Under the pieces are notes generated by a model, which made no database searches, was not told where the DNA came from, and worked only from the letters and a program-made list of their open reading frames with translations. A program made the position numbers and the translations under genes. Below are positions 7,204-45,962 of a stretch of 57,362 nt of DNA, piece by piece. This DNA comes from an uncultured Bacilli bacterium (GTDB taxonomy: Bacteria; Bacillota_I; Bacilli_A; RF39; UBA660): NCBI GenBank assembly GCA_947628895.1, contig CANRBS010000004.1:1-57362 (forward strand). The letters run 5' to 3'. How positions within the stretch are numbered: position 1 is the stretch's first letter; each line of letters opens with the position of its first letter.

Positions 7204-7206
7204 AAA

Positions 7207-7241
7207 AAAATAGGAAGTAATTTTTTGTTACTTTCTATTTT
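7207..7241. terminator. Bidirectional hairpin between convergent genes
   Basis: AAAATAGGAAGTAA / TTACTTTCTATTTT arms with one mismatch; overlaps the stop of the pilin-like gene. Confidence 0.65.
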
Positions 7242-8977
7242 GTTGGAGTAAGAACCAAACGAGTGCTACGAAGCTCAAAAGCAGTACCAGTATCCCTACT
7301 AAAATTGAATTGACCTGCAATTGTAGTATTAGTGTAGTTACCACCACGAGAAAACCAAGGAAAAGATAATTCAACAAAATATGCATAATCAGCATGCCAA
7401 GTGCTTATATTATAAACCTCTTTATAAAAAGGTCCCATTTCTCCTGTTGCATCTCCAAGTATTCTATATTTATATGACGTTTCATTACTAGATTTTGAAT
7501 ATTTATCTAAATATTTATTATATATTTCATTAGTTATTATATCGTCCATTCCACTATCTTTTGGATTTTCATCTATATATGAAGCCATATATTCAGAAGT
7601 TACTCCACTCATGTCATATATACCTGTTATATTTCCTGTTGTTGATGCAGTATACCCAGTTTCTGTATTCCATTTTGAATTATTTGTTTTACCTTCACTT
7701 GCATCTTTAGAATTTGCTGCATATCCTGTTAAACTATTACTATTATTGTTTATTCTTACCTCATCATTTATTCCATATTTTGAATGTGATAAATATGCTA
7801 CTGCTCCCCATTCTGTATTCTTCATCATATGACTATCTAAGTTTCTATTAAAATTGAATGTACTTTGAAAAAATGTTGAAACTGATTGATTTCTCCATGA
7901 ATATACATTCGGTTTTATTATTATTTTATTTTCTAGACTACTTTTGTATCCCTCTGTCACTTGTGCATTTGCTGTTGTCCAAGTAGAAATATTAGCATCT
8001 GTTATTGGTGCTGTTATGTCTAAATTTTGATTGTATCCTGTTTCAAATTTTCCTACCCAAAATCCATTTGAAGGTATTGATAAGAATGCAGGATGAGTCA
8101 TTAAGTCTCCAATATCACAGTCCCCAGTTTCCCCACTTATCATTGGACTTGCACACTCTTTTTTTATTTCATCATTTACTGTTGTTCTTGTTCCAAATTC
8201 TATCTCTATTTCTTTTATTTGACTTTCCGGTTTACTACTTTCTAATCCTTCATAATTTCCTAAATTAAATATTCTATAGCTATATTTTGGTATCCATACA
8301 AAATATGCCCTTATATCTGATTCAGCTATAGTGTCTCCTTCTTTATAATTAGGATTACTTGGCTTATCTACTAATATTACTGCATTTGCCCATTTCTTTT
8401 CAGTATATTTATACCACTCATCTTTATATACATCTGCATATGTTACTACTCCTGTATTTGATAACATTACTGGTATCATTGGAGCTTTTAACACTGGGTC
8501 AGTTCCATTTAATTCAATTTCTGTGTATAATACTTTTTCACCATCCACTAATAAATTTCCTTTACAATCTAATATTTGTGATTTTGCTTCACTTACTTTA
8601 TACTTTTTTCCTATATCTTCTCTTTCTATCCCTGTTGAATTATTTGCTATTAATTCATTTGCTTCATCTCTTGCCCTTACTTCTATTATCTTTCCTTTAT
8701 CGTTAAATTTAACTACATATAATATATTACTTCTTCCATCTAAATTTAATGCATTTGTACTACTATCAAAACAATTTGTATTTTTATTTCCAATAGACAA
8801 AGATACATATTTACTCTCTGCACTTCTCATTATATTTTGTACTTCACTTGTAAATGTATTTACTTTTGCTTCTCTAAACATTTTTAAAACATTAGGCAAA
8901 GCTATGATTACTAGTATTGCTAAAATAGCTATTACTGCGAGTAGCTCTACTAATGTAAATCCTTTTTTATCTTTCAT
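7235..8977 (-). CDS. Type IV pilin-like protein with large C-terminal C-type-lectin (FGE-like) domain, paralog 1
   Basis: Class III signal KKG|FTLVELLAVIAILAILVIIALP (E at +5); GFWVGKFE, EWGAVAYL, GIYDMSG, RGG and terminal RLVL motifs. Confidence 0.85.
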   Translation of the reverse strand: MKDKKGFTLVELLAVIAILAILVIIALPNVLKMFREAKVNTFTSEVQNIMRSAESKYVSLSIGNKNTNCFDSSTNALNLDGRSNILYVVKFNDKGKIIEVRARDEANELIANNSTGIEREDIGKKYKVSEAKSQILDCKGNLLVDGEKVLYTEIELNGTDPVLKAPMIPVMLSNTGVVTYADVYKDEWYKYTEKKWANAVILVDKPSNPNYKEGDTIAESDIRAYFVWIPKYSYRIFNLGNYEGLESSKPESQIKEIEIEFGTRTTVNDEIKKECASPMISGETGDCDIGDLMTHPAFLSIPSNGFWVGKFETGYNQNLDITAPITDANISTWTTANAQVTEGYKSSLENKIIIKPNVYSWRNQSVSTFFQSTFNFNRNLDSHMMKNTEWGAVAYLSHSKYGINDEVRINNNSNSLTGYAANSKDASEGKTNNSKWNTETGYTASTTGNITGIYDMSGVTSEYMASYIDENPKDSGMDDIITNEIYNKYLDKYSKSSNETSYKYRILGDATGEMGPFYKEVYNISTWHADYAYFVELSFPWFSRGGNYTNTTIAGQFNFSRDTGTAFELRSTRLVLTPTK

Positions 8978-9009
8978 TTTGATTACCTCTTCTCTATTTT
9001 TACTCCTTT

Positions 9010-9036
9010 ATTATAACCTATATATATATATATCAA
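9010..9036 (-). promoter_or_regulatory. Putative promoter with (TA)n tract in the spacer, paralog 1
   Basis: Minus strand TTGATA, 15 bp, TATAAT; alternating TA tract at 9019-9033. Confidence 0.5.
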
Positions 9037-9115
9037 GAGGCACTTTACTAATTTTACAAACTAACTTTGCTTAACAAACTTTTAATTATGGAAGCAAATA
9101 AAAAAGTGAAATTTA

Positions 9116-10003
9116 TTAAACTTCACTTATAAATATAGGTTGTCTTAAATGATTAGATTTTGTTCTTTCTAAATATTTAACCTTACATTTATATTTAGGA
9201 TTAATATAAGTATTATCTTCATTATAATTTTCAAATGGGCTTTTTGTAGATTTTAATTTCTTTAATTTTTGATAAAGCTCTTTTTTCTTTGCCATACTAA
9301 CTTTACCAACAAATTCAAATTTTTTATTTTTTATTTCACCTAAAACTAATGAAATAACATTACTATTCTTCTTTTCATTATATCCACAAATATAGAAGTT
9401 ACCACTTTTTAAATTCTTTATTTTAATCCAATTATAATTTCTATCATTTATTATATATTTACTATCTTTCTTTTTAGCAATAATTCCCTCTAGTCCAAGT
9501 TTAACTACTTTTTTAAATAAATCAATACCTTTTTCTTCTATATATTTATTTTTAATAAATACATCATTATTTTTATATTTACTAAGTATTTCTTTTCTCT
9601 TCATTAAATCTAAATTAGTTAAATCTTTATTTTCATAAAGTATATCAAAACATACAAATTCTACTTTCATTTTTTCACTATAAGTTTTAATAGTGTTTTC
9701 ATTTTTTAATCTAAATCTTTCTTGAAGTTTTTGAAATGATGGTTTATTATTATCAAATACTACTATTTCACCATCAAATATTACATTTTTATTAACAATA
9801 TTTTTAATTGATTGAAGTTCTGGATATAGATGTGTAATATCATAATAATTTCTACTTTTAATTATAACTTTATTTGGACTTGCAAAAACTATTGCTCTTT
9901 GTCCATCAAATTTTAGTTCAAATATATAATCTTTTGAGTTAAATGGTTTTTCTATTTCTTTAAGTAACATTGGAGACCATTTTTTATTTTTCCATATATT
10001 CAT
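9116..10003 (-). CDS. ligD: ATP-dependent DNA ligase (NHEJ LigD ligase domain only)
   Basis: FELKFDGQR adenylation motif, FDGE, FDIL, EGIIAK, WIKIK; follows ku. Confidence 0.88.
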   Translation of the reverse strand: MNIWKNKKWSPMLLKEIEKPFNSKDYIFELKFDGQRAIVFASPNKVIIKSRNYYDITHLYPELQSIKNIVNKNVIFDGEIVVFDNNKPSFQKLQERFRLKNENTIKTYSEKMKVEFVCFDILYENKDLTNLDLMKRKEILSKYKNNDVFIKNKYIEEKGIDLFKKVVKLGLEGIIAKKKDSKYIINDRNYNWIKIKNLKSGNFYICGYNEKKNSNVISLVLGEIKNKKFEFVGKVSMAKKKELYQKLKKLKSTKSPFENYNEDNTYINPKYKCKVKYLERTKSNHLRQPIFISEV

Positions 10004-10776
10004 TATTTCTGTTTTAAACTTTTTTCAAGTGCTTCAAATAAATCACTAACACTTTGTTTTTTACCTTTCCTTACACTTTTTATCTTTTTACCATCTAACT
10101 TATCTTTAATAGCGGTCTTTATATTATTTTGATATTCATCTTGATATTTATTAGGTTCAAACTTACCACTTCTTTGTTCAATTAATTTAATTGCTAAATC
10201 AAGTTCTTTTGGATCCACTTTTTCATCTATTACATCATCTGGCATAAATACTTCTTCATGAAAAAATAATGTAGTCATAATAATACCATGTTTAGTAAAT
10301 CTTAATATACAATAATAAAACTTACTACCAATAACAGTTTTAGCAAGTGCTACTTTCTTTACTTTTTTAAGTGCTTCACAAAAAAGATTATAAGCTTTAG
10401 ATGATTTTTCTGTTTCTAAAATATAACTTTTTTCATAATATACAGGATCTATTTGTGATATATCCACAAAAGATACTATTTCAATTTCTTTTTCATTTTC
10501 AGGTTTTAATTTTGATAATTCTTCTTTATCAAATATAATATATTTATCTTTTTCATATTCATATCCCTTAATAATATCTTTTTCTTTTAAATCACTTTTA
10601 CAATGAGTACAATACTTTATATATTTAACTCTATTCATACACTTTTTATGTAATTGATTAAAAGCAGTATCATTATTTCTAATTAATGGATTCATAATTA
10701 TAGGAATATTAACAAGTCCAAAAGAAATATTACTATGTACATTTGGCATAATCTTCACCATTTTTATTATTCTCAT
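10003..10776 (-). CDS. ku: NHEJ Ku protein
   Basis: ISFGLVNIP, FNQLH..C..RVKY, KGYEY, IDPVYYEK.Y motifs. Confidence 0.9.
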   Translation of the reverse strand: MRIIKMVKIMPNVHSNISFGLVNIPIIMNPLIRNNDTAFNQLHKKCMNRVKYIKYCTHCKSDLKEKDIIKGYEYEKDKYIIFDKEELSKLKPENEKEIEIVSFVDISQIDPVYYEKSYILETEKSSKAYNLFCEALKKVKKVALAKTVIGSKFYYCILRFTKHGIIMTTLFFHEEVFMPDDVIDEKVDPKELDLAIKLIEQRSGKFEPNKYQDEYQNNIKTAIKDKLDGKKIKSVRKGKKQSVSDLFEALEKSLKQK

Positions 10777-10827
10777 AATATGATGAAATATGTATTTTCA
10801 ATAAAAAAATAATCTAGAATTTCTAAA

Positions 10828-11262
10828 TTATTTTTTCTTATTATTCTTCTTTAATAAATCTCTTATTTCTTCAAGTAATAAAACTTCATCACTTTTTTTA
10901 GGCTCTTCTTTTTTCTCTTCTATTTTTTCTTTTATAAAGAATTTATTGATTAGTTTAACAAATATAAATACACAAAATGCCACTATTAAAAAGTCTATTA
11001 CATTTTGAATAAATGAACCATATTTAATTACAGCACTTCCAACAGTAATACTTAAATTAGAAAAATCATGTCCACCTATTATTACACCTACTATTGGCAT
11101 TAAAATATCATCTACAAGTGAAGATACTATTGTTCCAAAAGCACCACCTATAATTACTCCAACGGCTAAATCAAGAACATTACCTCTTTTAATAAATGTT
11201 TTAAATTCATTAATAAATCCTTTTGATTTTTTAAGTTCTTCTTTAATATCTGTTTTTTTCAT
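10828..11262 (-). CDS. mscL: Large-conductance mechanosensitive channel
   Basis: [37 protein letters not shown]. Confidence 0.95.
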
Positions 11263-11295
11263 ACTACACCTCTTTCATTAAAATTATAACATAAT

Positions 11296-12156
11296 TTAGA
11301 ATATAAGTATAATTGTTCCAATAACTATTGATAAAAGACCAAATATTTCTTTTTTATTAATTTTTTCTTTTAATAAAATGCATGAGAATATAACAGTGAA
11401 TACTATATTTAGTTTTTCAATTGGAAATACTAAACTAGCTTCTCCTTTTTGTAAAGCTGCATAATAACATAACCAAGAAAGTCCTGTAGTTAATCCTGAT
11501 AATATAATGTATTTAATATCATTTAATTTTAATTTTTTATAATCTTTATATTTTTTAGTAGATATTACGAATATCCAAATTATAATAAATACAATAACCG
11601 TTCTTATAAATGTAGATAATATGGTATTAATTTTTTCTAAACCAATTTTACCAAATATAGTTGTAGTACTTGTAAATATTGCTGTTAAAATTGCATAAAT
11701 TAACCATTTATTATCTTCTTCTTTACTTTCTTTTTTATTCATTATAAATGTACCACCAATTATTAATATACTTGAAATTATTTTAACTAAAGTTATTTTT
11801 TCACTTAAAAATATTGAAGATAATAATAGAGTTATAACTATACTAGTTTTATCAATAGAAGCAACTGAATTTACATTACCAAGTTTTAATGCTTTAAAAT
11901 AAAATATCCAAAGTAATGTTGTAGATATACCAGATAAAATTAAAAATATAAATGTTTTAATATCAATGTTAGTAACTTCAACAAATAAATTTTTAATCAT
12001 TACTAAAATTAAGAAAAATATAAGTATTATAATTGTTCTTAAGGAAGATGAGAAGCTAGAGTTAATATCACTAACTGACATCTTAGCAAACACAGCAGTT
12101 ATCCCTGCAAAAAAAGCCGCAAGTAACGCATATATTATCCACATAATATTCACCAA
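11296..12156 (-). CDS. EamA/DMT family transporter
   Basis: Two repeated five-helix hydrophobic halves, e.g. W.IYALL.A.F and YF.ALK.G. Confidence 0.85.
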   Translation of the reverse strand: MVNIMWIIYALLAAFFAGITAVFAKMSVSDINSSFSSSLRTIIILIFFLILVMIKNLFVEVTNIDIKTFIFLILSGISTTLLWIFYFKALKLGNVNSVASIDKTSIVITLLLSSIFLSEKITLVKIISSILIIGGTFIMNKKESKEEDNKWLIYAILTAIFTSTTTIFGKIGLEKINTILSTFIRTVIVFIIIWIFVISTKKYKDYKKLKLNDIKYIILSGLTTGLSWLCYYAALQKGEASLVFPIEKLNIVFTVIFSCILLKEKINKKEIFGLLSIVIGTIILIF

Positions 12157-12253
12157 TATTATTATTTACAAATTTACTTATCTTTACACTTAAAATAGTT
12201 AAAGAATTCATTTTAATGAGTTAGAGTGATATAATTTTTATAAGGGTGATGTT

Positions 12254-13612
12254 ATGTTTAAATATGAAACAGATTCAAGAAAAGTAGAAAAAGGACAAAC
12301 TTTTATAGCTATTAAAGGTCTTACTGTAGATGGGCATGATTTTATAGACTCAGCTATAGAAAAAGGTGCCAGTAAAATAATTAGTGAAAAAGATTTAGAT
12401 ATAAATGTTCCATATGAAAAAGTTAAAGATACTAGTGAATATTTAAAAGATATATTAAATAAGGAATATGGAAAAGAAATAAGTAAATTAAAATTAATTG
12501 GTGTTACTGGAACAAATGGTAAAACTACAAGTTGTTATTTAATTTATCAAATGCTTTTAAATTTAGGAGTAAATACGGCTTATATTGGTACTCTTGGATA
12601 TTATCATAAAGATGAATTTATTGAACTTAATAATACAACTCCAGATATATTAACAATTTATAAATTACTTATGCATGCTAAAGAAAGTGAATGTGAAAGT
12701 GTTGTTATGGAAGTTAGTTCTCAATCATTATCATATGATAGATTAAATGGAATTAATTTTTCAATTATAGCTTTCACTAATTTAACTGAAGATCATTTAG
12801 ACTATCATAAAACTATGGAAAATTATTTAAATGCTAAACTTTTAATATTAGATCATTTAAAGAAAGACACAATTATTATTGCAAATAAAGATGATAAAAA
12901 TTATATTAAATTTAAAAAAGATAATCACAAGTTCTTAACGATTGGATACAATGCTGATTATGAAATAGTTGATTTTAAAACTAGTCCAAGTGATACAGAT
13001 TTAACATTTAAATTTGATAATTGTGAATATACCGTTAATGTTCCTTTAACTAGTAAATTTAATGTTTATAATTATCTTACTATGTTATCAATTGTTAATA
13101 ATTATGGATTTGATATTAATAAAATTGTTGATAACACTAAAAAGTTAAAACAACCAAAAGGAAGATGTGAAGCTTATAAAGTTAATAATGGTACTGCGAT
13201 TATTGATTATGCTCATACACCTGATGCTGTTGAAAAAGTAATTAATGCTTACCTTGAACTTAAAAATAATAGAATTATTACACTAATTGGTTGTGGTGGA
13301 GATAGAGATCCTAAAAAAAGACCAATTATGGGAGAAATTGCTACAAGGTTAAGTGATTATGTTATTTTAACAAGTGATAATCCTAGAACTGAAGACCCAA
13401 TTTCTATAATAGATGATATGATTAAAGGTATTAAAAAAGATAATTATGAAGTTATTGTTGATAGAAAAGAAGCAATAAAAAAAGCAATTGATTTAATGGA
13501 AAAAGATGATATATTATTAATACTTGGTAAAGGCCATGAAAATTATCAAATAATTGGAAAAACTAAATATCATTTAGATGATAGTGAAGAAGTATTAAAT
13601 TATAAAAAATAA
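12254..13612 (+). CDS. murE: UDP-N-acetylmuramoyl-L-alanyl-D-glutamate--2,6-diaminopimelate ligase
   Basis: GVTGTNGKTT, NTTPD, MEVSS, DYAHTPDA, GCGGDRD, SDNPR (DNPR suggests meso-DAP), GKGHE. Confidence 0.92.
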   Translation: MFKYETDSRKVEKGQTFIAIKGLTVDGHDFIDSAIEKGASKIISEKDLDINVPYEKVKDTSEYLKDILNKEYGKEISKLKLIGVTGTNGKTTSCYLIYQMLLNLGVNTAYIGTLGYYHKDEFIELNNTTPDILTIYKLLMHAKESECESVVMEVSSQSLSYDRLNGINFSIIAFTNLTEDHLDYHKTMENYLNAKLLILDHLKKDTIIIANKDDKNYIKFKKDNHKFLTIGYNADYEIVDFKTSPSDTDLTFKFDNCEYTVNVPLTSKFNVYNYLTMLSIVNNYGFDINKIVDNTKKLKQPKGRCEAYKVNNGTAIIDYAHTPDAVEKVINAYLELKNNRIITLIGCGGDRDPKKRPIMGEIATRLSDYVILTSDNPRTEDPISIIDDMIKGIKKDNYEVIVDRKEAIKKAIDLMEKDDILLILGKGHENYQIIGKTKYHLDDSEEVLNYKK

Positions 13613-13646
13613 AAAGTATAGTTTCAAAAAGGAAATTATACTTTTT
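13611..13646. terminator. Bidirectional hairpin between murE and pilin-like paralog 2
   Basis: AAAAAGTATAGTTTC / GAAATTATACTTTTT arms with one wobble and a 6-nt loop. Confidence 0.7.
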
Positions 13647-13672
13647 AGTTATAATAAATAAAATCAATGAAG

Positions 13673-13850
13673 TTAAGGCTTTAGAACGAGACGAAAGCCG
13701 GTGTAGGAGTAGGCTTCGCCTGTTTGCCTGTTAAAGTAGAACTGACCAGCAGGAGTGGCATCACTGTAGTAGCCCCCACGAAAGAACCAAGGGTAAGTAG
13801 GCTCAACGAAGAGCGAGTTGTCGGCATACCATGTACTCTGGTAATATTCG
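13673..13850 (-). other. Putative DGR variable region (VR)
   Basis: Hand count 85/168 G+C (~51%) over 13673-13840 in an AT-rich gene; all six Tyr codons after GAC AAC are TAC and both Asn are AAC; ends GGC TTT CGT CTC GTT CTA. Confidence 0.7.
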
Positions 13851-15400
13851 TTATACCAAAAAGGTCCTAATTCTCCAGTTGCATCTCCTAATATTCTATA
13901 TTTATATGATCTGTTTGATGTAACTGATTTTGAATATTTATCTAGATATTTATTATAAGTAGAATTTGTTATTATACTATCCATTCCACTACTTTTAGCG
14001 GTTTCTTCTATATAAGCTGCCATGTACTCCCAAGACCCACCACTCATATCATATACTCCAGTTATATTTCCTGTTGTACTTGCTAAGTGTCCAGTAGTAG
14101 TATTCCATTTTGTATTTGCTGTTTCACTAGAAGCCCCGTCTTTAGAATTAGCTGCATATCCTGTTAAATATTTGCTATTATTATTTATTCTTACGGCATC
14201 TTGTATTCCATATTTTGAGTGTGATAAATAAGCAACAGCTCCCCATTCTGTATTTTTCATCATATGACTATCTAAACTTCTATTAAAATTATAAGCATTC
14301 ATAAATAAATTATATATCTTTGCACCTCTCCATGAGTATACGGTTGGTTTTACTATTATATTTGATGGTTTTTCACTATTTACTTGTGCATTTGCTGTCG
14401 TCCATGTAGCTACATTTTCATCAGTTATTGGTTGACTAGAGTCTCCATTTTGATTATATCCTGTTTCAAATTTTCCTACCCAAAATCCATTTGATGGAAT
14501 ACTCAAAAATGCTGGATGTGTCATTAAATCTCCTATATCACAATCCCCAGTTTCTCCACTTACCATTGGACTTGCACATTCTTTTTTTTCTTCATCATTT
14601 ACTGTTGTTCTTGTTCCAAATTCTATCTCTATTTCTTTTATTTGACTTTCTGGTTGACTACCTTCTAATCCTTCATAATTTCCTAAATTAAATATTCTAT
14701 AACTATATTTTGGTATCCATACAAAATATGCCCTTATATCACTTTCTAATATTGTATCTCCTTCAGTATATTCTTTACTTGGACTATCTACTAATATTAC
14801 TGCATTTGCCCATTTCTTTTCAGTATATTTATACCATTCATCATATTCGTGTGCATATGTTGCTACTCCTGTATCTGATAACATTATAGGTATCATTCCA
14901 CTCCCTAAAACTGGGTCAGCTCCATTTAATTCACTTTCTGTATATTTTGTTTTTGGTTTTTCTCCATCAATCAACTGATTTCCTTTACAATCAGTTATAC
15001 TTGTCTTAGCTGATTCTACTTTATATTTCTTTCCAATGTCTTCTCTTTCTATCCCATTTGTATTATTTGCTATTAATTCATTTGATTCATCTCTTGCGGA
15101 TATTTCTATTATTTGTCCTTTATCATTAAATTTAACTACATACGATATGTTACTTCTTCCATCTAAATTTAATACATTTGTACTACTATCAAAACATCTT
15201 ATTTCTTTATTTCCAATTGAAGAAGATACATATTTATCTTCAGCACTTCTTATTATATTTTGTACTTCACGAGTAAATGTATTTACTTTTGCTTCTCTAA
15301 ACATTTTTAAAACATTTGGAAGTGCTATGATTACTAGTATTGCTAAGATTGCTATTACTGCTAAAAGTTCTACTAATGTAAAACCATTTCTATTTTTCAT
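13673..15400 (-). CDS. Type IV pilin-like protein with C-terminal C-type-lectin (FGE-like) domain, paralog 2; probable DGR target
   Basis: RNG|FTLVELLAVIAILAILVIIALP; same architecture as 7235-8977; ends ...RGGYYSD...GFRLVLKP. Confidence 0.85.
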   Translation of the reverse strand: MKNRNGFTLVELLAVIAILAILVIIALPNVLKMFREAKVNTFTREVQNIIRSAEDKYVSSSIGNKEIRCFDSSTNVLNLDGRSNISYVVKFNDKGQIIEISARDESNELIANNTNGIEREDIGKKYKVESAKTSITDCKGNQLIDGEKPKTKYTESELNGADPVLGSGMIPIMLSDTGVATYAHEYDEWYKYTEKKWANAVILVDSPSKEYTEGDTILESDIRAYFVWIPKYSYRIFNLGNYEGLEGSQPESQIKEIEIEFGTRTTVNDEEKKECASPMVSGETGDCDIGDLMTHPAFLSIPSNGFWVGKFETGYNQNGDSSQPITDENVATWTTANAQVNSEKPSNIIVKPTVYSWRGAKIYNLFMNAYNFNRSLDSHMMKNTEWGAVAYLSHSKYGIQDAVRINNNSKYLTGYAANSKDGASSETANTKWNTTTGHLASTTGNITGVYDMSGGSWEYMAAYIEETAKSSGMDSIITNSTYNKYLDKYSKSVTSNRSYKYRILGDATGELGPFWYNEYYQSTWYADNSLFVEPTYPWFFRGGYYSDATPAGQFYFNRQTGEAYSYTGFRLVLKP

Positions 15401-15431
15401 TTTGGTTACCTCTTTCTATTTTTCATTTTTT

Positions 15432-15458
15432 ATTATATCGTATATATATATATATCAA
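15432..15458 (-). promoter_or_regulatory. Putative promoter with (TA)n tract in the spacer, paralog 2
   Basis: Minus strand TTGATA, 15 bp, TATAAT; TA tract at 15441-15455; flanking GTAAAATTAGTA..GTGCCTC shared with paralog 1. Confidence 0.5.
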
Positions 15459-15541
15459 GAGGCACCCTACTAATTTTACAAACAAGCATCGCATTTAGTC
15501 TATCTTTTATAACAAACTTTAAATCTATAGAAATACAAAAA

Positions 15542-21628: not shown

Positions 21629-22141
21629 CTATATTTCAGTCCAACTATCATTGTATTCTATATTATTTTTTCTATCTAATATAAAATTTCCGAATTGTGT
21701 AGATAGTTCTTTTATATTCCAATAACCAAAACCATTGCCGCCATCAACATAAGCATAGATATAAATTCTTTTATTTGTTTCGTCTTTATAAAAATAGAAT
21801 TTGAAATTACCACCAATATTGACAATTTTTAATCTGTGAGCATTTACAACTTGTGTCCAAAATATAGTAATAATATCACTTGAATAATGTTGATTGTAAT
21901 AAAAATTATGACTTATTAATAATGTTGCAATGCCCCATTTTTCATTATTTGTAAACGCTTCAACATTTATATAACCCAATTGCATGTAATGGGTTGTATA
22001 TCCTGCACTTTGTGTTGATATATTAGTTTTGTATAAATTAGACTTTAAATTATCATTTAATTCATTAAAATTACCATTTAAATTTTTTGGATTTAAAGGT
22101 GTACTCGTATCTGGTAGAGCTTTAAATTCTGTTAATGCCAT
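21629..22141 (-). CDS. Putative tail fibre / receptor-binding protein A
   Basis: Position after tail genes; N-terminus LPDTSTPLNPKNLN shared with the upstream gene; beta-rich remainder. Confidence 0.5.
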   Translation of the reverse strand: MALTEFKALPDTSTPLNPKNLNGNFNELNDNLKSNLYKTNISTQSAGYTTHYMQLGYINVEAFTNNEKWGIATLLISHNFYYNQHYSSDIITIFWTQVVNAHRLKIVNIGGNFKFYFYKDETNKRIYIYAYVDGGNGFGYWNIKELSTQFGNFILDRKNNIEYNDSWTEI

Positions 22142-22195
22142 ATTTACGGCTAATTATTTTTGTTCTATATTATTTCATAATTTAACTTTTATTAA

Positions 22196-23011
22196 CTAAT
22201 AAATTAAAAAACATGGACGAACACCACCAGCTGCTGAAGCAGTAAAGCTATGTGCATAACCTGTGCCTGTAACATTACAAAACTCTTGAGGTTTAGATAC
22301 ATTTCTTAACCAATAGAATTGCCTTGATCCACTATCATCAAAAGCAATTATTTTACTTTTATCTAATCTAAATAAAGATAATTGTGAATTGTCCACTTCT
22401 TGATTAGTAGGTTTAATAGTTCCAGGAGATACATTGTGAAAAATATTAGATCCAAATACCATTAATTCATTCATTAATTCTATTGTTGAATTATACCAAC
22501 CAATATTAGATTCACAATTGTCATTAATAGCATTTGCAAATTGATTTTTATGACTTAAAATATGATCTATTCCAAAATCATTTTGAATAATCGTTTTAAA
22601 TGGATTTAAATTAGTTGTATACATTTCACTGCCTATATAAGCACCTGTTGCAATATCACTATTATTCATTTTTGCCATTCCCATAATTAAATCAGGAATC
22701 ATTAGAATGTGTTGTGTAGTACATTCTTGATCACCTTTATGAAGTCTATAGTTTATATCAGATACAAGATATTTTCTTCCACTTGATTTTCCAATTATGT
22801 AATCTCCAATAAATATATCATCAAATGTTCCATTAGCGATATTTTTTGATACAGTTCCATCATAAAATGATTTTGTGATATCTTTACCTCTGTAAATTGA
22901 GTTATGGAACCCTGCATTATTAGTTCCTAAAAGTTCAAAATTATTATTTAAATTTGTTGGGTTTAAAGGTGTACTTGTATCTGGAAGTCCTTTAAATTTT
23001 GTTATCGCCAT
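22196..23011 (-). CDS. Putative tail fibre / receptor-binding protein B with DUF6273-like lectin-type domain
   Basis: Shared N-terminus; IGDY, GAYIGSEM, YWLR and terminal GGVRP.F motifs. Confidence 0.6.
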   Translation of the reverse strand: MAITKFKGLPDTSTPLNPTNLNNNFELLGTNNAGFHNSIYRGKDITKSFYDGTVSKNIANGTFDDIFIGDYIIGKSSGRKYLVSDINYRLHKGDQECTTQHILMIPDLIMGMAKMNNSDIATGAYIGSEMYTTNLNPFKTIIQNDFGIDHILSHKNQFANAINDNCESNIGWYNSTIELMNELMVFGSNIFHNVSPGTIKPTNQEVDNSQLSLFRLDKSKIIAFDDSGSRQFYWLRNVSKPQEFCNVTGTGYAHSFTASAAGGVRPCFLIY

Positions 23012-23142
23012 ACAAGATCACCTTCATTCTTTAGAGAGCAAAAATAATTTTTATGCCTTGCCCCCTTTCCAAGCTCGTATATATATATATATGAGCAACC
23101 ATTATTTATAAAATTTGTTAAAATATTTTTTGCTTTTTTCAT
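23002..23142 (-). CDS. 46-aa ORF containing a TA tract, overlapping the start of the next gene
   Basis: GAAAGGA RBS; MKKAKNILTNFINNGCSYIYIYELGKGARHKNYFCSLKNEGDLVWR. Confidence 0.35.
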   Translation of the reverse strand: MKKAKNILTNFINNGCSYIYIYELGKGARHKNYFCSLKNEGDLVWR

Positions 23143-23159: not shown

Positions 23160-25649
23160 TTATTCTAATTCTTTTGTATAAATACCATTTACACCAAAAG
23201 CTGATAATAAATTATTATCAGAATTAACAATTCTTATTGGCATAAAACAATTTGATGTATCTAAAATTAATTTACCAGGGGATGATTTTTTTAAATTGTA
23301 ATAAATTAACTTTCGACAAACTAACATATCATCTATTCCTATTTTTCCATCTTTATTAAAGTCGTATTTTTCATAATCATTGCTTGTAGGAGTAATTTTA
23401 TTTTCACAAATTTGCTGTATTCTTTCTAAATCAGATTGTGTATAGTCATTAGGAGGAACGATTTCACACCATAGAGAATGATCTGTTATATGCCAACCTC
23501 CAATTGTTCCCCCAAGTGCAGTTATTAAACCATCTTTAGTTACTTTAAAATTATCACTCTCAATCGTTGTATTATCACTTGTTAAGTTGATTTCTTTGCC
23601 CTCTAAACTAATTTTGTCAGCATTAATTAAAATCTTTTCTGCACTTTGATTAATTTTAGAAATGATTTCATTATTTCCTACTTTTTTTAAAACTTCTGAA
23701 TTTATGCTTTCTGCTGTTTGAGTAATAGTTGAATTTAAATTTGATACTTCATTATTAAAATTCTTTTCAATTCTGCTAACTTCACTCTTAATAGATTCAT
23801 TAGTTAGTGTTATTGAACTTCTTAATTCAACTTTTGTTGCAAAATTATTTGTATAAGCATTTGAAGCCATTAATTTAACAAATAAATATGCTTCATCATA
23901 CCCTAATAAATAAACATTATAATCACCAGCACTTAAATTAATTGATGGATAATTATAATTATTTATTTTAGGTTCTGATAAAGCATGAGTTGTTCCATCA
24001 GCATTATAGCCAACTTTTTTAATAACTTGACATTGTTTGTTTTCATAATCTAATATAAATTCATCATATATTTCTTTGTTATAAATAAGTAAATCATCTG
24101 GTAATTCATAATCAAATATTTCTTTTGTTGTCGTATTCTCAAACCTTATTTTTCTGTTTTTTAAAAATAAGTCATCACTTGGAAATAAATTGTCATGCGG
24201 ATACAAATAAGAAATATTTTCATTAATAGGTTTAATTCTTATATATAAAGGTTCACTTTCACTAATTTTATTTAATGCTAATGAACCTTTATCAGTTTCA
24301 CCACTAATAATAAATTCTAAAATATTTTGAACTCTAGCAACAAGTTCATCATATCCTTCAATAAGATTTGTATTTATTTTTCCTGCAGAAATAAAATCTG
24401 CATTAAAACTTCCATCTTGTGTTAATGCATATTTAAATGGTCCTTCATATCCGTTTGAACTAAATCCTAATCCTCCTAAATTCCAACGCCAAACATTTTT
24501 TGCATTCTCAATTGGTAATTCATCTAAAATTAACAATTCATTTTTGGTTTGTACAATCTTACCATAACTTACCATTGAATTTATTATTTTAGTTTGAGCA
24601 TCTATTATTTCACTTTGTTTTGATATTTTGTCATTTGCTAAAACAATTTTTTCTTTTATTGAATTAAATTTGCTTTTTACACTTCTAACATAATTTCCAA
24701 AAACTAGTTTAATTATTCTATTAGTATTATGATTATATTCATATTCTTGAACTTCTGTTAACAGTTCAATTAAAGGATGCTTAACATGTATTAAATCTCC
24801 TATTTCTAATCGTTGATTTATATTTGAAACTATTTCATAACTTACATTTGGATATTTATTATTTTCTAAAAAAGCTAATGCTTTATTTCTTAATTCTGTT
24901 ATCAAGTTTTCTTCAGTTTGTTCATCTTCATCAAGCTCAGTTTCAAATGATTCAGTTATAGTATATGGTCTATCATACTGAATATCGCTTTCTAAAAACT
25001 TTTCAGGTAATAATAAACCATCTTTCCCAACAGGATATATTTTAGTACATACATTTGACCAATCTTCAAAGACTTTCAAACTCTCTAAATTTTTTTTATA
25101 AGAAATTACCTCACCATTATCATTGCCAATTTTTGTTAATAAAGATATATTCCAATTATCTGCATCAAAATAACCACCTATTTTTTCTTCAATTGTTTCC
25201 CAAGCTTCAAGTAAATTTTTTCTTATAAAATAATTAGTTGATATTGTTGTAACATCAGAATACACCCTAAATGGTGATTCTTTATCTGTCCTATCATTTA
25301 TGTAAGTTAATGCATTTATTCCATCTAATTTAGTTGGTCTTACATCTAATAAAAAATAATCTTTTGCAGTAAACATAACATGATTTGCTGTAAAGACTAT
25401 TGTTTTTGAAGTATATTCTATGTCATCAATTGTAAATGCTTGAGGATTTAATTTTGACTTTGTTTTTATAACAACAAGTTTATCCTTTAAAATATAGCTT
25501 TTAAATTTTATAGGTACTTCTATTTTAAGAAACCAACCATTTAAAGATTTTAATTTTGTTTCAATACAACTAATTGGATTAATACAAATGTTACCTAATG
25601 TTGAAAAATCTCTATCATCTGAATTAAAGATTTTTATCATAACCAACAA
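23160..25649 (-). CDS. Phage tail protein (Tal/endopeptidase-like) with C-terminal extension
   Basis: Follows Dit; G..ISYKKNL, TKIYPVGKDG, WRWNLGGLGFS..G..GP, ITQTAE.I motifs. Confidence 0.8.
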   Translation of the reverse strand: MLVMIKIFNSDDRDFSTLGNICINPISCIETKLKSLNGWFLKIEVPIKFKSYILKDKLVVIKTKSKLNPQAFTIDDIEYTSKTIVFTANHVMFTAKDYFLLDVRPTKLDGINALTYINDRTDKESPFRVYSDVTTISTNYFIRKNLLEAWETIEEKIGGYFDADNWNISLLTKIGNDNGEVISYKKNLESLKVFEDWSNVCTKIYPVGKDGLLLPEKFLESDIQYDRPYTITESFETELDEDEQTEENLITELRNKALAFLENNKYPNVSYEIVSNINQRLEIGDLIHVKHPLIELLTEVQEYEYNHNTNRIIKLVFGNYVRSVKSKFNSIKEKIVLANDKISKQSEIIDAQTKIINSMVSYGKIVQTKNELLILDELPIENAKNVWRWNLGGLGFSSNGYEGPFKYALTQDGSFNADFISAGKINTNLIEGYDELVARVQNILEFIISGETDKGSLALNKISESEPLYIRIKPINENISYLYPHDNLFPSDDLFLKNRKIRFENTTTKEIFDYELPDDLLIYNKEIYDEFILDYENKQCQVIKKVGYNADGTTHALSEPKINNYNYPSINLSAGDYNVYLLGYDEAYLFVKLMASNAYTNNFATKVELRSSITLTNESIKSEVSRIEKNFNNEVSNLNSTITQTAESINSEVLKKVGNNEIISKINQSAEKILINADKISLEGKEINLTSDNTTIESDNFKVTKDGLITALGGTIGGWHITDHSLWCEIVPPNDYTQSDLERIQQICENKITPTSNDYEKYDFNKDGKIGIDDMLVCRKLIYYNLKKSSPGKLILDTSNCFMPIRIVNSDNNLLSAFGVNGIYTKELE

Positions 25650-31134: not shown

Positions 31135-31369
31135 CTATATATAGTTGCTTAAATTCATAAAGTCTTTTGTATATTGCATACAAAACATAATTTTCAAGTA
31201 ATGCTTGTGCTTTTAAATCATCCAAATAATTAATTTCGACACCAACTGAATTATTAATGTCATAAATTCCATTTCTTACATATTTATCTAAATCTTCTTT
31301 TGAATAAGAATCAAATTTAAAATTATTAAAAAATATTTCACATAATTTTTTAATATTTTCATCGTTCAT
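31091..31369 (-). CDS. Putative head-tail connector (gp6-like)
   Basis: Synteny; LLENYVLYA....L..F...Y...LQ. Confidence 0.65.
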   Translation of the reverse strand: MNDENIKKLCEIFFNNFKFDSYSKEDLDKYVRNGIYDINNSVGVEINYLDDLKAQALLENYVLYAIYKRLYEFKQLYIGDYVELQIKYNRDS

Positions 31370-31837
31370 TTATTTTTTACCTTTTTTATTAGTTCTTTTT
31401 AAATTATTTGAATCTTCAATTTCATTATTTTCTGAATCTTCTAGTTCATTTGATTCTTCATCTTCAGTATTTCCTGAATCTGAATTTTCTAGATCTTTTA
31501 ATTCTTCATCTTCAGTATTTCCTGAATCTAAATCTTCTGGATCTTTTGTTTCTTCATCTTCAGTATTTTCTGAATCTGAATTTTCTGGATCTTTTAATTC
31601 TTCATCTTCTGTACTTTCTGAATCTAAATCTTCTGGATCTTTTGTTTCTTCATCTTCAATATTTTCTGAATCTAAATCTGAATCATTAATATCAATTAAA
31701 ACTGGTTGACCTAATGAATTGTCCTTTGAAAGAAGAAATTCTAATCTTTCATTAGAAATTTCTTCTTCATATAAATCACCAGGTTTGTATATTTTTTTAG
31801 AATCTTTATCTCTAAATAATTTAATTACTTTAAGCAT
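31370..31837 (-). CDS. Capsid-adjacent protein with acidic tandem repeats
   Basis: KVIK.FRDK....IYKPGD.Y N-terminus followed by D/E-rich repeats. Confidence 0.7.
   Translation of the reverse strand: MLKVIKLFRDKDSKKIYKPGDLYEEEISNERLEFLLSKDNSLGQPVLIDINDSDLDSENIEDEETKDPEDLDSESTEDEELKDPENSDSENTEDEETKDPEDLDSGNTEDEELKDLENSDSGNTEDEESNELEDSENNEIEDSNNLKRTNKKGKK
31439..31678 (-). repeat. Five imperfect 48-bp (16-aa) tandem repeats
   Basis: DLDSENIEDEETKDPE / DLDSESTEDEELKDPE / NSDSENTEDEETKDPE / DLDSGNTEDEELKDLE / NSDSGNTEDEESNELE. Confidence 0.85.
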
Positions 31838-45038: not shown

Positions 45039-45962
45039 TTATTCTCCTTCTTTTCTAAAATTATTTATAAAATCTTTAAATTCTTTATCATCAATTTTTT
45101 CTCCTGATTTTTTAATTTCTTCATTAACCCAATCAGGAACAGGTACAACCCTTTTACCTTTATTATTCTTTTTTTCAAACTTATCCTCAAAATTAATTAT
45201 TTCTTTTAACGTTTCCAAATTATCTTGTTTCCAATTTTTTAAAATACCTTTTGTGTAATTCAAGCTTTGTTTTCCAGCTTCTAAAGTTTTTTTAAAAGCA
45301 TATAATGTAATATCTGGATGATATTTTTCTATCAATAGTTCTATTTGCTCATATTCATATGAACTAATAGTTCTATTAAAATTATTTTCTATAAAAGAAA
45401 CTATATTATTAATATCAATATTATTTAAATTATTATCTAAATTATTAATATTACTATTTAATTTATTATTAATATTTTTATTATTATTTTTATTATTATT
45501 TATATTATTATTAACATTAACATTAACAACTTGTTGTGCATACTCGTTTGCATACCCATTTGCATTATCGTTTGCATACTTGTTTGCATTATCGTTTGCA
45601 TACTCGTTTGCATTATCGTTTGCATACTCGTTTGCATACTCGTTTGCATTATCATTTGCATACCCGTTTGCATTATCATTTGCATACCCGTTTGCATTAT
45701 CATTTGTATGCCATCTAGTATTTGCAGCTTTTGATCTTTTAATATATTTTTCTATTGGTCTTTTTAAATTTACAAAGACAGCCATTTGTCTAGGGTTTAA
45801 ATTATCTGGTGGTTCTTCGTTTAATCCAAATTTTACGAGTGCAAGTAATAATTCTCCTTGTTCTTTATCACTTAAAACGGATATTAAATCAAAGTATTCT
45901 CTATAAATTGTAAATGATTTTATCATTTTCCCTCCTAAAATTTTTAACACAAAATAATCCAT
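45039..45962 (-). CDS. Replication initiator (DUF6291-like N-terminus, DnaD-like C-terminus)
   Basis: KSF..Y..Y...I..LSD..QGELL; FIENNFNR.IS..E...I, Y..GILKNW, VPDW; probable start ATG at 45926. Confidence 0.82.
   Translation of the reverse strand: MDYFVLKILGGKMIKSFTIYREYFDLISVLSDKEQGELLLALVKFGLNEEPPDNLNPRQMAVFVNLKRPIEKYIKRSKAANTRWHTNDNANGYANDNANGYANDNANEYANEYANDNANEYANDNANKYANDNANGYANEYAQQVVNVNVNNNINNNKNNNKNINNKLNSNINNLDNNLNNIDINNIVSFIENNFNRTISSYEYEQIELLIEKYHPDITLYAFKKTLEAGKQSLNYTKGILKNWKQDNLETLKEIINFEDKFEKKNNKGKRVVPVPDWVNEEIKKSGEKIDDKEFKDFINNFRKEGE
45537..45704. repeat. Fourteen tandem 12-bp iteron-like repeats (probable phage origin)
   Basis: Units TGCATACTCGTT / TGCATTATCRTT / TGCATACCCRTT counted by hand; adjacent to an extremely AT-rich tract at ~45400-45530. 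Confidence 0.85.

Follow-up and report, generated by a model that had tools for sequence, protein, structure and literature searches.

Candidate phase-variable TA-tract promoters upstream of pilin-like adhesin genes in an uncultured gut Bacilli bacterium

The stretch of DNA analysed here (57,362 nt, hereafter the window) comes from the reduced genome of an uncultured rabbit-gut Bacilli bacterium (1.46 Mb, 23.7% GC). Two paralogous genes for pilin-like adhesins lie within it, each preceded by a promoter whose spacer is made up largely of alternating TA dinucleotides, and this raises the question of whether the length of the tract could decide whether the adhesin is expressed. We consider it likely that the promoters form a promoter-spacer contingency switch of the hif/Vmm type, in which slippage moves the spacer between 15 and 17 bp. 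Random on/off switching of this proposed kind is already known; the lineage and the gene family are new to it. The promoters, genes and cassettes are laid out as follows.

9031..9036, minus strand: promoter A -35 hexamer, TTGATA, a 5/6 match to TTGACA (family pattern CCTCTTG..TATAAT)
9030-9016, minus strand: promoter A spacer, 15 nt, tatatatatataggt
9019..9033, no strand: TA tract A, (AT)7A, 15 nt, which sets the 15-bp spacer
9010..9015, minus strand: promoter A -10 hexamer, TATAAT
7235..8977, minus strand: gene A, encoding a pilin-like adhesin of 580 aa with a prepilin N-terminus and a large C-terminal domain
7205..9109, minus strand: cassette A (gene and promoter), an indel, missing at the exactly syntenic site of G058 and G059
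15453..15458, minus strand: promoter B -35 hexamer, TTGATA
15452-15438, minus strand: promoter B spacer, 15 nt, tatatatatatacga
15441..15455, no strand: TA tract B, (AT)7A, 15 nt, which sets the 15-bp spacer
15432..15437, minus strand: promoter B -10 hexamer, TATAAT
13673..15400, minus strand: gene B, encoding a pilin-like adhesin of 575 aa with a prepilin N-terminus; weak match to the FGE-sulfatase/C-type-lectin fold
13613..15533, minus strand: cassette B (gene and promoter), an indel, missing at the syntenic site of G058 and G006 and present in G059

The original prediction had placed TTGATA, a 15-bp spacer and TATAAT, with a 15-nt TA tract, on the minus strand at both sites, and this arrangement is confirmed from the sequence; the flanks, also predicted to be conserved, align over 78 nt at 85% identity. 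At both sites the repeat tract therefore stands between a recognisable -35 and -10, as in repeat-spacer phase variation, and at promoter A the final three bases of the -35 are shared with the tract. The promoters lie 33-35 nt 5' of the ATG of the paralogous genes, and gene A has a GAGG at 8989-8986, 8 nt ahead of its ATG. The encoded proteins are 75% identical, and both begin with a prepilin cleavage/methylation motif followed by a hydrophobic helix (sequences MKDKKGFTLVELLAVIAILAILVIIA and MKNRNGFTLVELLAV), where PF07963, the prepilin methylation motif, is matched with E values of 3e-08 and 4e-08. In the sister species G006 cassette A is present, but under another TA-tract promoter.

Several other roles for these sites were considered. 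An invertible promoter (fimS, hin or Bacteroides type) came into view on account of the self-complementary tract and of a 53-bp element, described below as element E, that occurs in both orientations; it was rejected because no inverted repeats were found around the two window promoters and all paralogs, orthologs and assemblies have the same orientation. A cruciform or supercoil sensor seems less probable, as 15 nt is short for extrusion. A consensus scan with 16-18-bp spacers, by which the 15-bp promoters themselves are not called, gave no upstream bypass promoter avoiding the tract that was better than in shuffled sequences.

The pilin promoter family comprises 34 copies in three sister species (G000, G006 and G059), with identical flanks and spacers of 15 bp (23/34) or 17 bp (11/34) and no other length. 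Among the TA-tract spacers of this genome, 12 are 15 bp and 9 are 17 bp, with none at 14, 16 or 18 bp. Its non-repeat promoters of the form TTGAC[AT]-N-TATAAT have a 17-bp spacer in 38 cases and a 15-bp spacer in 4 (background 1-11), and since they peak so sharply at 17 bp, the 15-bp state of both window copies is off-optimum. The argument that 17 bp is the optimal spacing is therefore valid in this organism, and the 17-bp form that one extra TA unit was expected to give exists in four paralogous promoters of the same genome with identical flanks, namely those at C1:26297, C5:14194, C5:26749 and C32:12346. Equal length of the two window copies had been thought to weaken the case; this reservation loses its force, as 15 is merely the commoner of two states. 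Two family members without a repeat (C5:6525 and C36:2007) have an 18-bp spacer, and the G059 ortholog of one of them has a TA tract and a 17-bp spacer. A scan of metagenome contigs with the promoter pattern returned three unrelated matches, none from this clade.

The same counts bear on whether the tract could instead be a fixed, lineage-specific structural spacer that works at either length, its length differences being near-neutral and without a switching role. We regard this as unlikely, although 15 bp predominates in each of the three species and 15-bp tracts also stand ahead of non-adhesin envelope genes, because the non-repeat promoters of the genome avoid 15 bp and just two lengths, one unit apart, are tolerated in all the family copies.

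Long TA tracts are a feature of the whole genome. Their number falls from 361 at 8 nt to 93 at 9 nt, 17 at 10 nt and 16 in total at 11-14 nt, and then stands at 21 for 15 nt, 5 for 16 nt and 7 for 17 nt. This bimodal distribution indicates that long tracts are maintained and not random, and the 33 tracts of 15-17 nt are mostly in surface or envelope gene promoters. TA runs in the window also exceed chance: for a length of 12 nt the expectation is 0.14 per window, against three tracts observed, the third being a 15-nt tract within a prophage (23078-23092) that the first inspection had missed and at which no -10 was recognisable. All genes behind TA-tract promoters encode surface-exposed or envelope products. 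At least 16 are pilin-like (N_methyl), and the others comprise an EPS-priming sugar transferase (Bac_transf), three DUF6020 proteins, a DUF975 and a DUF805 protein, a lipoprotein and a secreted protein. The genome encodes MutS, so slippage is not boosted by a loss of mismatch repair, and this was rejected as a driver of tract change.

Comparison with other assemblies of the same species, which have only 3-5x coverage, gives 99.3-100% identity to this genome across 43.6 kb. All four gap openings in this alignment are the loss of one TA unit, and all fall in pilin promoter tracts at two sister loci: at C1:26297 the tract is 17/17/17 versus 15, and at C5:14194 it is 17 versus 15/15/15. One variant contig has 0 mismatches in 2284 nt besides the TA gap. 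Repeat number in this promoter family thus varies by whole units within the species. Moreover, since the only indels in near-clonal sequence are tract indels, the tracts mutate at a rate far above that of their flanks; selection would act against such a rate in an element with a purely structural role. Heterogeneity across strains, the check proposed with the original prediction, was accordingly seen as one-unit differences at the two sister loci and not at site A, where the tract is 15 in 4/4 assemblies (this one and three further). For a within-species comparison at site B, pilin B, XFP and TsaE were looked up as exact proteins and gave no matches, and the MurC contigs stop within the pilin gene. 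Most locus comparisons are invariant, as a fixed spacer would have it; with 10/14 locus-by-assembly comparisons unchanged, any switching is too slow to scramble the consensus states.

Differences of the same kind are found between species. The site B ortholog in G059 (C19:54-86) has 17 where the window has 15, and the state differs in two of four orthologous promoter pairs between G000 and G059, site B included, with changes in both directions (15 to 17 and 17 to 15). This recurrence of the same two states speaks against reading the between-assembly differences as artefacts of low coverage, polymerase stutter in TA runs or short-read mixing of paralogs. Such an origin would suit the shallow contigs and a promoter and 5' coding region that are repeated among paralogs, and it could apply to variant contig L176, whose sequence downstream of the promoter departs from the reference, perhaps through mixing of paralogs in assembly. 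The length of 15 at C5:14194 recurs, however, in three independent assemblies, the tract is joined to a unique upstream flank of more than 370 nt, and the gene downstream in contig L174 is the same as in the reference, so that we consider artefacts a very improbable source of the differences.

The favoured slippage switch would operate as follows. Each pilin-like adhesin cassette has its own sigma-A-type promoter, in which the alternating TA tract supplies the end of the -35 hexamer and nearly the whole spacer. Slipped-strand mispairing would add or remove one TA unit, and the spacer would toggle between 15 bp (15-nt tract) and 17 bp (17-nt tract) with both hexamers untouched. With 17 bp as the optimum for this organism's RNA polymerase, the 17-bp form would be 'on' (strong) and the 15-bp form 'off' or weak; both window genes are now in the short, 15-bp state. 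Judged from sequence, a change in tract length is predicted to alter transcription and thereby to switch expression; switching may be reversible and frequent, and the two window copies would be expected to switch as their sister loci do. With about 20 such genes and other envelope genes, each having one tract, a population could show changing combinations of surface proteins. As the 15-bp form is the majority in three species and also precedes the EPS-priming transferase gene, it may keep useful activity, and the short state may be a dial instead of a full off.

A second layer, diversification by a diversity-generating retroelement (DGR), had been suggested on top of the switch. A DGR is present on contig C23, where a template repeat accompanies a 343-aa reverse transcriptase (PF00078), and four variable regions elsewhere in the genome have 12/12 to 17/18 adenine-specific mismatches relative to that repeat. 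The corresponding feature in the window is the following.

13682..13826, minus strand: variable-region-like 3' end of gene B, 84.8% identity to the C23 DGR template repeat

Of its 22 mismatches, 13 coincide with adenines of the template, which read as T on the compared strand, so that gene B looks at least partly decayed as a target. Gene A matches the template repeat at 76% identity over 75 nt only, and on its sequence is not a credible DGR target. The suggested layering is borne out in part, in that the C23 DGR partly overlaps the gene family. If the switch is real, two layers would act on about 20 pilin-anchored lectin-fold adhesins, some of them hypermutated by the retroelement: slippage would pick the adhesins displayed and the DGR would set their binding target.

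Most known cases of phase variation through repeat slippage come from culturable pathogens. The promoters described here would extend this logic to a rabbit-gut commensal that is uncultured and has a reduced genome. In the Vmc family of M. capricolum, as here, every gene has its own tract. In Haemophilus influenzae, the -35 and -10 of hifA/hifB are separated by a (TA)9-11 repeat (van Ham 1993, as described in PMC2651432 and PMC3899988), and these descriptions bear out the precedent originally invoked, namely that hif fimbriae are phase-varied by TA repeats in the promoter spacer. As far as hif is described there, the likeness lies in a TA repeat between -35 and -10, in one-unit changes that alter spacing and in a surface filament or adhesin encoded downstream. 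On the same descriptions, one bidirectional promoter serves the single hif fimbrial operon, whereas about 20 or more one-directional promoters, each with its own cassette, are found here. At 7.5-8.5 units the tract here is shorter, and it contributes to the -35 hexamer as well. The host is of Gram-positive type, and on/off expression is known for hif and predicted here.

In Mycoplasma mycoides, dinucleotide insertions or deletions in a promoter repeat switch the surface protein Vmm on and off (Persson 2002, as described in PMC2628566). The hosts of Vmm and of the Vmm-like genes in related mycoplasmas share with ours low-GC, reduced genomes of the same class (Bacilli in GTDB terms), but their products are small lipoproteins, unlike the 575-586-aa type-IV-pilin-like proteins here with a C-type-lectin-fold domain of the DGR-diversified kind. 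Homopolymers in the -35/-10 spacer set promoter strength and serve as switches in Mycoplasma hyorhinis vlp (poly-A), Neisseria meningitidis porA (poly-G) and Bordetella fim (poly-C) (PMC3899988). In vlp and fim several family members have their own tract, which gives combinatorial expression (PMC3899988), and the tracts here would do the same. Homopolymers change in 1-bp steps with graded states, in contrast to the 2-bp unit and the only two observed states (15 and 17) here.

A separate observation concerns the 53-bp element E, which splits some TA tracts and is probably the end of a mobile element. This genome has 8 copies and G006 more than 12, whereas none was found in G059. TA tracts flank every copy, and each is attached to one or the other half of a TA-tract promoter. 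At the yabQ/divIC locus the pilin promoter is split at the tract, and the orthologous promoter in G059 is intact. The E junctions fit the two ends of an inserted element better than an inversion. It could be supposed from them that TA tracts are mainly landing or recombination sites of a mobile element that carries E and an outward promoter, with insertion and not slippage varying expression. This we hold to be improbable: G059 is rich in TA-tract promoters and has no E, so the tracts exist independently of the element; E is absent from both window promoters; its junctions are identical in every assembly examined; and the one-unit length changes occur at intact promoters.

Small elements of the Correia and IS630 types target TA, lie beside genes and bring or break promoter parts. 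Element E resembles them as a small repeated element at TA next to genes that brings or breaks promoter parts, but lacks terminal inverted repeats of its own. A known RNA was rejected for E, with no match in Rfam and a hairpin, (AU)4GG..CC(AU)4, that is not consistently beyond shuffles (z -2.65, 0.35 and -1.65). A search of 50 genomes of the genus for the interior of the presumed element gave contig-end fragments only, with no transposase or complete element recovered. E seems to form the terminus of a larger entity, one equipped with a complete outward promoter. Tentatively, and with more doubt than for the slippage switch, the TA tracts may have a dual role, as slippage switches and as specific landing sites of an undescribed mobile 'promoter swapper' that is itself phase-variable. 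At each of its ends such an element would have a complete TA-tract promoter facing outward, TTGACTtttc-(TA)n-TATAAT, with the 53-bp E after it; insertion would split the host contingency promoter at the tract, and the repeat-containing promoter of the element would replace the host -35 half. If true, the swapper would rewire the choice of expressed surface genes. The 77-nt sequence adjoining the interior of the element is a generic hairpin repeat that also occurs beside unrelated genes.

Both pilin-like adhesin genes of the window are preceded by TTGATA and TATAAT hexamers 15 bp apart, as predicted originally, and the 15-nt alternating tract, (AT)7A, begins within the -35 hexamer and covers 12 of the 15 spacer positions at each promoter (sites A and B). 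Conservation of the flanks, also predicted, amounts to 85% identity across 78 nt, and the two paralogous proteins are 75% identical.

TTGATA 9036-9031, 15-nt spacer, TATAAT 9015-9010, minus strand: site A promoter, read from the sequence
7235-8977, minus strand: pilin-like gene A, 580 aa, prepilin N-terminal methylation motif
7205-9109: cassette A (gene and promoter), a clean indel, absent at exactly syntenic sites in sister species G058 and G059
TTGATA 15458-15453, 15-nt spacer, TATAAT 15437-15432, minus strand: site B promoter, read from the sequence
13673-15400, minus strand: pilin-like gene B, 575 aa, prepilin N-terminal methylation motif
13613-15533: cassette B (gene and promoter), a clean indel, absent at exactly syntenic sites in G058 and sister species G006
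~20000-46500: prophage with large terminase, portal, major head, tape measure, tail protein and integrase (PHROGs)

Runs of 12 nt of TA have an expectation of 0.14 in the window and are present at three tracts. The third, (AT)7A at 23078-23092, is prophage-borne with GCTC/GAGC flanks, and its neighbours are the gene of the tail protein (23160-25649) and, on the other side, a DUF6273 gene of 271 aa (22196-23011); a -10 hexamer was sought there and none was recognisable, so this tract does not count as a promoter tract. The next gene opens (22067-22142) with an 86% repeat of the initial 76 nt of the DUF6273 gene, and the prophage also carries a 12-nt tandem array within an ORF (45501-45728) and a 24-nt array (31364-31679).

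The TA-tract promoters are best read as a promoter-spacer contingency switch: at about 20 adhesin genes and several envelope genes, slippage would shift each spacer independently between a 17-bp form (strong) and a 15-bp form (weak or off). Directly observed are the anatomy of these promoters, their two length classes, their polymorphism and the 17-bp norm. In the genome under study, G000 (1.46 Mb in 76 contigs, 23.7% GC, the window being contig C4), alternating-TA tract lengths are bimodal, dropping from 361 tracts of 8 nt to 2 of 14 nt, with an upper mode of 21, 5 and 7 tracts at 15, 16 and 17 nt. Nearly all long tracts lie between a TTG-type -35 and TATAAT, or complete one. The genes downstream of them comprise at least 16 pilin-like ones and those for an EPS-priming sugar transferase, three DUF6020 membrane proteins, DUF975 and DUF805 proteins, a lipoprotein, a secreted protein, an ABC ATPase and a membrane-bound XRE protein. 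In a comparison of 50 species of the genus, many such tracts occur only in G000, G006 and G059; the nearest species, G058, has few, and remoter pilin-gene homologs have ordinary promoters. Homologous loci were found in MAGs of uncultured Bacilli bacterium from rabbit, Hadza and mouse guts.

Two spacer lengths account for the TA-tract promoters of the pilin family, collected in three species by the pattern CCTCTTG-N-TATAAT; spacers of 13, 19 or 21 bp were absent among them.

Spacer lengths of TA-tract family promoters
G000: 7 with 15 bp, 4 with 17 bp
G006: 7 with 15 bp, 1 with 17 bp
G059: 9 with 15 bp, 6 with 17 bp
All three species: 23 with 15 bp, 11 with 17 bp

Across G000, 12 TA-tract spacers measure 15 bp and nine 17 bp, lengths of 14, 16 and 18 bp do not occur, and all tract length change is in TA units. 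The proposed optimum of 17 bp, reached by adding one TA, is supported by non-repeat TTGAC[AT]-N-TATAAT promoters of G000, which peak sharply at 17 bp (n=38, against n=4 at 15 bp). The polymerase thus has the usual 17-bp optimum, which places both window promoters exactly one TA unit off. A consensus scan allowing 16-18 bp neither called the 15-bp promoters nor found a better promoter nearby. Two pilin family promoters of G000 (C5:6525-6558 and C36:2007-2040) have a non-repeat 18-bp spacer, TTGATA-ATATTTGAGTATATAAGA-TATAAT, and look like 'locked' versions; the G059 ortholog of the former has a TA tract giving a 17-bp spacer. The 15-bp state is the commoner and is present even at the EPS-priming transferase, so 'low' may describe the short state better than 'off'. 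An effect of the spacer on transcription, and the reversibility and rate of switching, are what we infer.

Length variation in relatives, which the original prediction had proposed as a check, was found in two of the four promoter pairs that are orthologous between G000 and G059 and have a tract in both, the other two being in the same state; site B, downstream of a phosphoketolase gene, is among the differing pairs (15 in G000, 17 in G059). No obvious target-site duplication was seen at cassettes A and B. Many G059 cassettes likewise lack a counterpart in G000. Directly upstream of cassette A is a pair of end-joining genes, Ku and ATP-dependent DNA ligase (9116-10776), in what is a reduced genome.

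Near-clonal assemblies (ENA ERZ27249363, ERZ27249368, ERZ27249370 and ERZ27249377; Logan ERR10663774-7), whose contigs were retrieved through exact-protein matches to neighbouring genes, are 99.3-100% identical to G000 across 43.6 kb, in which 32 mismatches and four gap openings were counted. Each of these gaps removes a single TA unit from a pilin promoter tract; the contigs have 3-5x coverage, and one variant contig differs downstream, which possibly reflects paralog mixing. Compared with the flanks, the tract therefore appears far more mutable. The expected variation across strains was seen as one-unit changes at C1:26297 (17 in G000 and two assemblies; 15 in ERZ27249370, with the downstream gene unchanged) and at C5:14194 (17 in G000, 15 in three assemblies, one variant contig having 0 mismatches over 2284 nt), but site A is constant, at 15 in three other assemblies as in G000. 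In all, ten comparisons agree with G000, counting site A in three assemblies and C1:26297 in two; C1:65631 (15) and C5:26749 (17) are each unchanged in the compared assembly, and tracts split by a 53-bp element, E, have the same junctions in two assemblies (C26) and one (C40). The instability is too low to scramble consensus states. MutS is encoded in G000.

Element E occurs in two variants, E1 and E2, always has TA tracts as its flanks, and is absent from G059 and G058.

G000, eight copies, all outside the window: C10:1-77, C13:3-77, C26:23032-23110, C36:1-59, C38:172-263, C40:3-78, C52:8884-8960, C65:1-77
G006, more than 12 copies: loci L013-L018 and L137-L145

One end of E starts with ATT, which together with the tract completes TATAAT. 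In the sole complete copy (C38:172-263), TTGACTtttc-(AT)8A precedes this end, giving a perfect outward TTGACT-17-TATAAT promoter reading through E; the opposite end joins, at a TA-tract junction, either the -35 or the -10 half of a host TA-tract promoter. Paired up, the eight ends give four insertions, every one of which combines an E1 with an inverted E2. Three sister species have yabP-yabQ and divIC as neighbours, and in G000 a pilin cassette lies between them, its promoter split in the tract by an inverted E1...E2 pair. Similarly, an ABC-transporter locus is split in G000, and G059 has it unbroken with a TA15 tract. This fits a mobile element, so far undescribed, that would target TA tracts and carry outward promoters, E probably being an end of it; no transposase was identified for it, and the assembly lacks its interior.

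The diversity-generating retroelement (DGR) of G000 is as follows.

C23:21499-23930: reverse transcriptase (343 aa, PF00078), two small accessory ORFs and template repeat
C23:23474-23618: template repeat, 145 nt

At least four variable regions (on C23, C15, C53 and C35) have mismatches almost solely at template adenines (12/12 to 17/18), and the C15 and C35 genes have TTGTAA-(AT)7A-TACAAT promoters, whose spacer is 15 bp. A slippage switch and a DGR really do appear to be layered in part of the family, as had been suggested for the window genes; the suggestion holds for the C15 and C35 genes, but gene A is not credible as a target and gene B looks like a decaying one, since its 3' end (13682-13826) is 84.8% identical to the template and 13 of its 22 mismatches fall at adenines. 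Gene B also has a weak FGE-sulfatase/C-type-lectin-fold match.

The nearest precedents are the (TA)9-11 switch of the Haemophilus influenzae hifA/hifB promoter (as described in PMC2651432 and PMC3899988) and a dinucleotide-repeat switch in the Vmm promoter of Mycoplasma mycoides (PMC2628566). The pilin promoters share with them the defining anatomy and within-species unit-length polymorphism; this candidate switch is of a kind already known, and the lineage and gene family are new. As a minor observation, G007, another genome of the genus, is a single 1.5-Mb contig with a completeness score of only 45%, which could reflect an unusual genetic code or a marker-gene problem.
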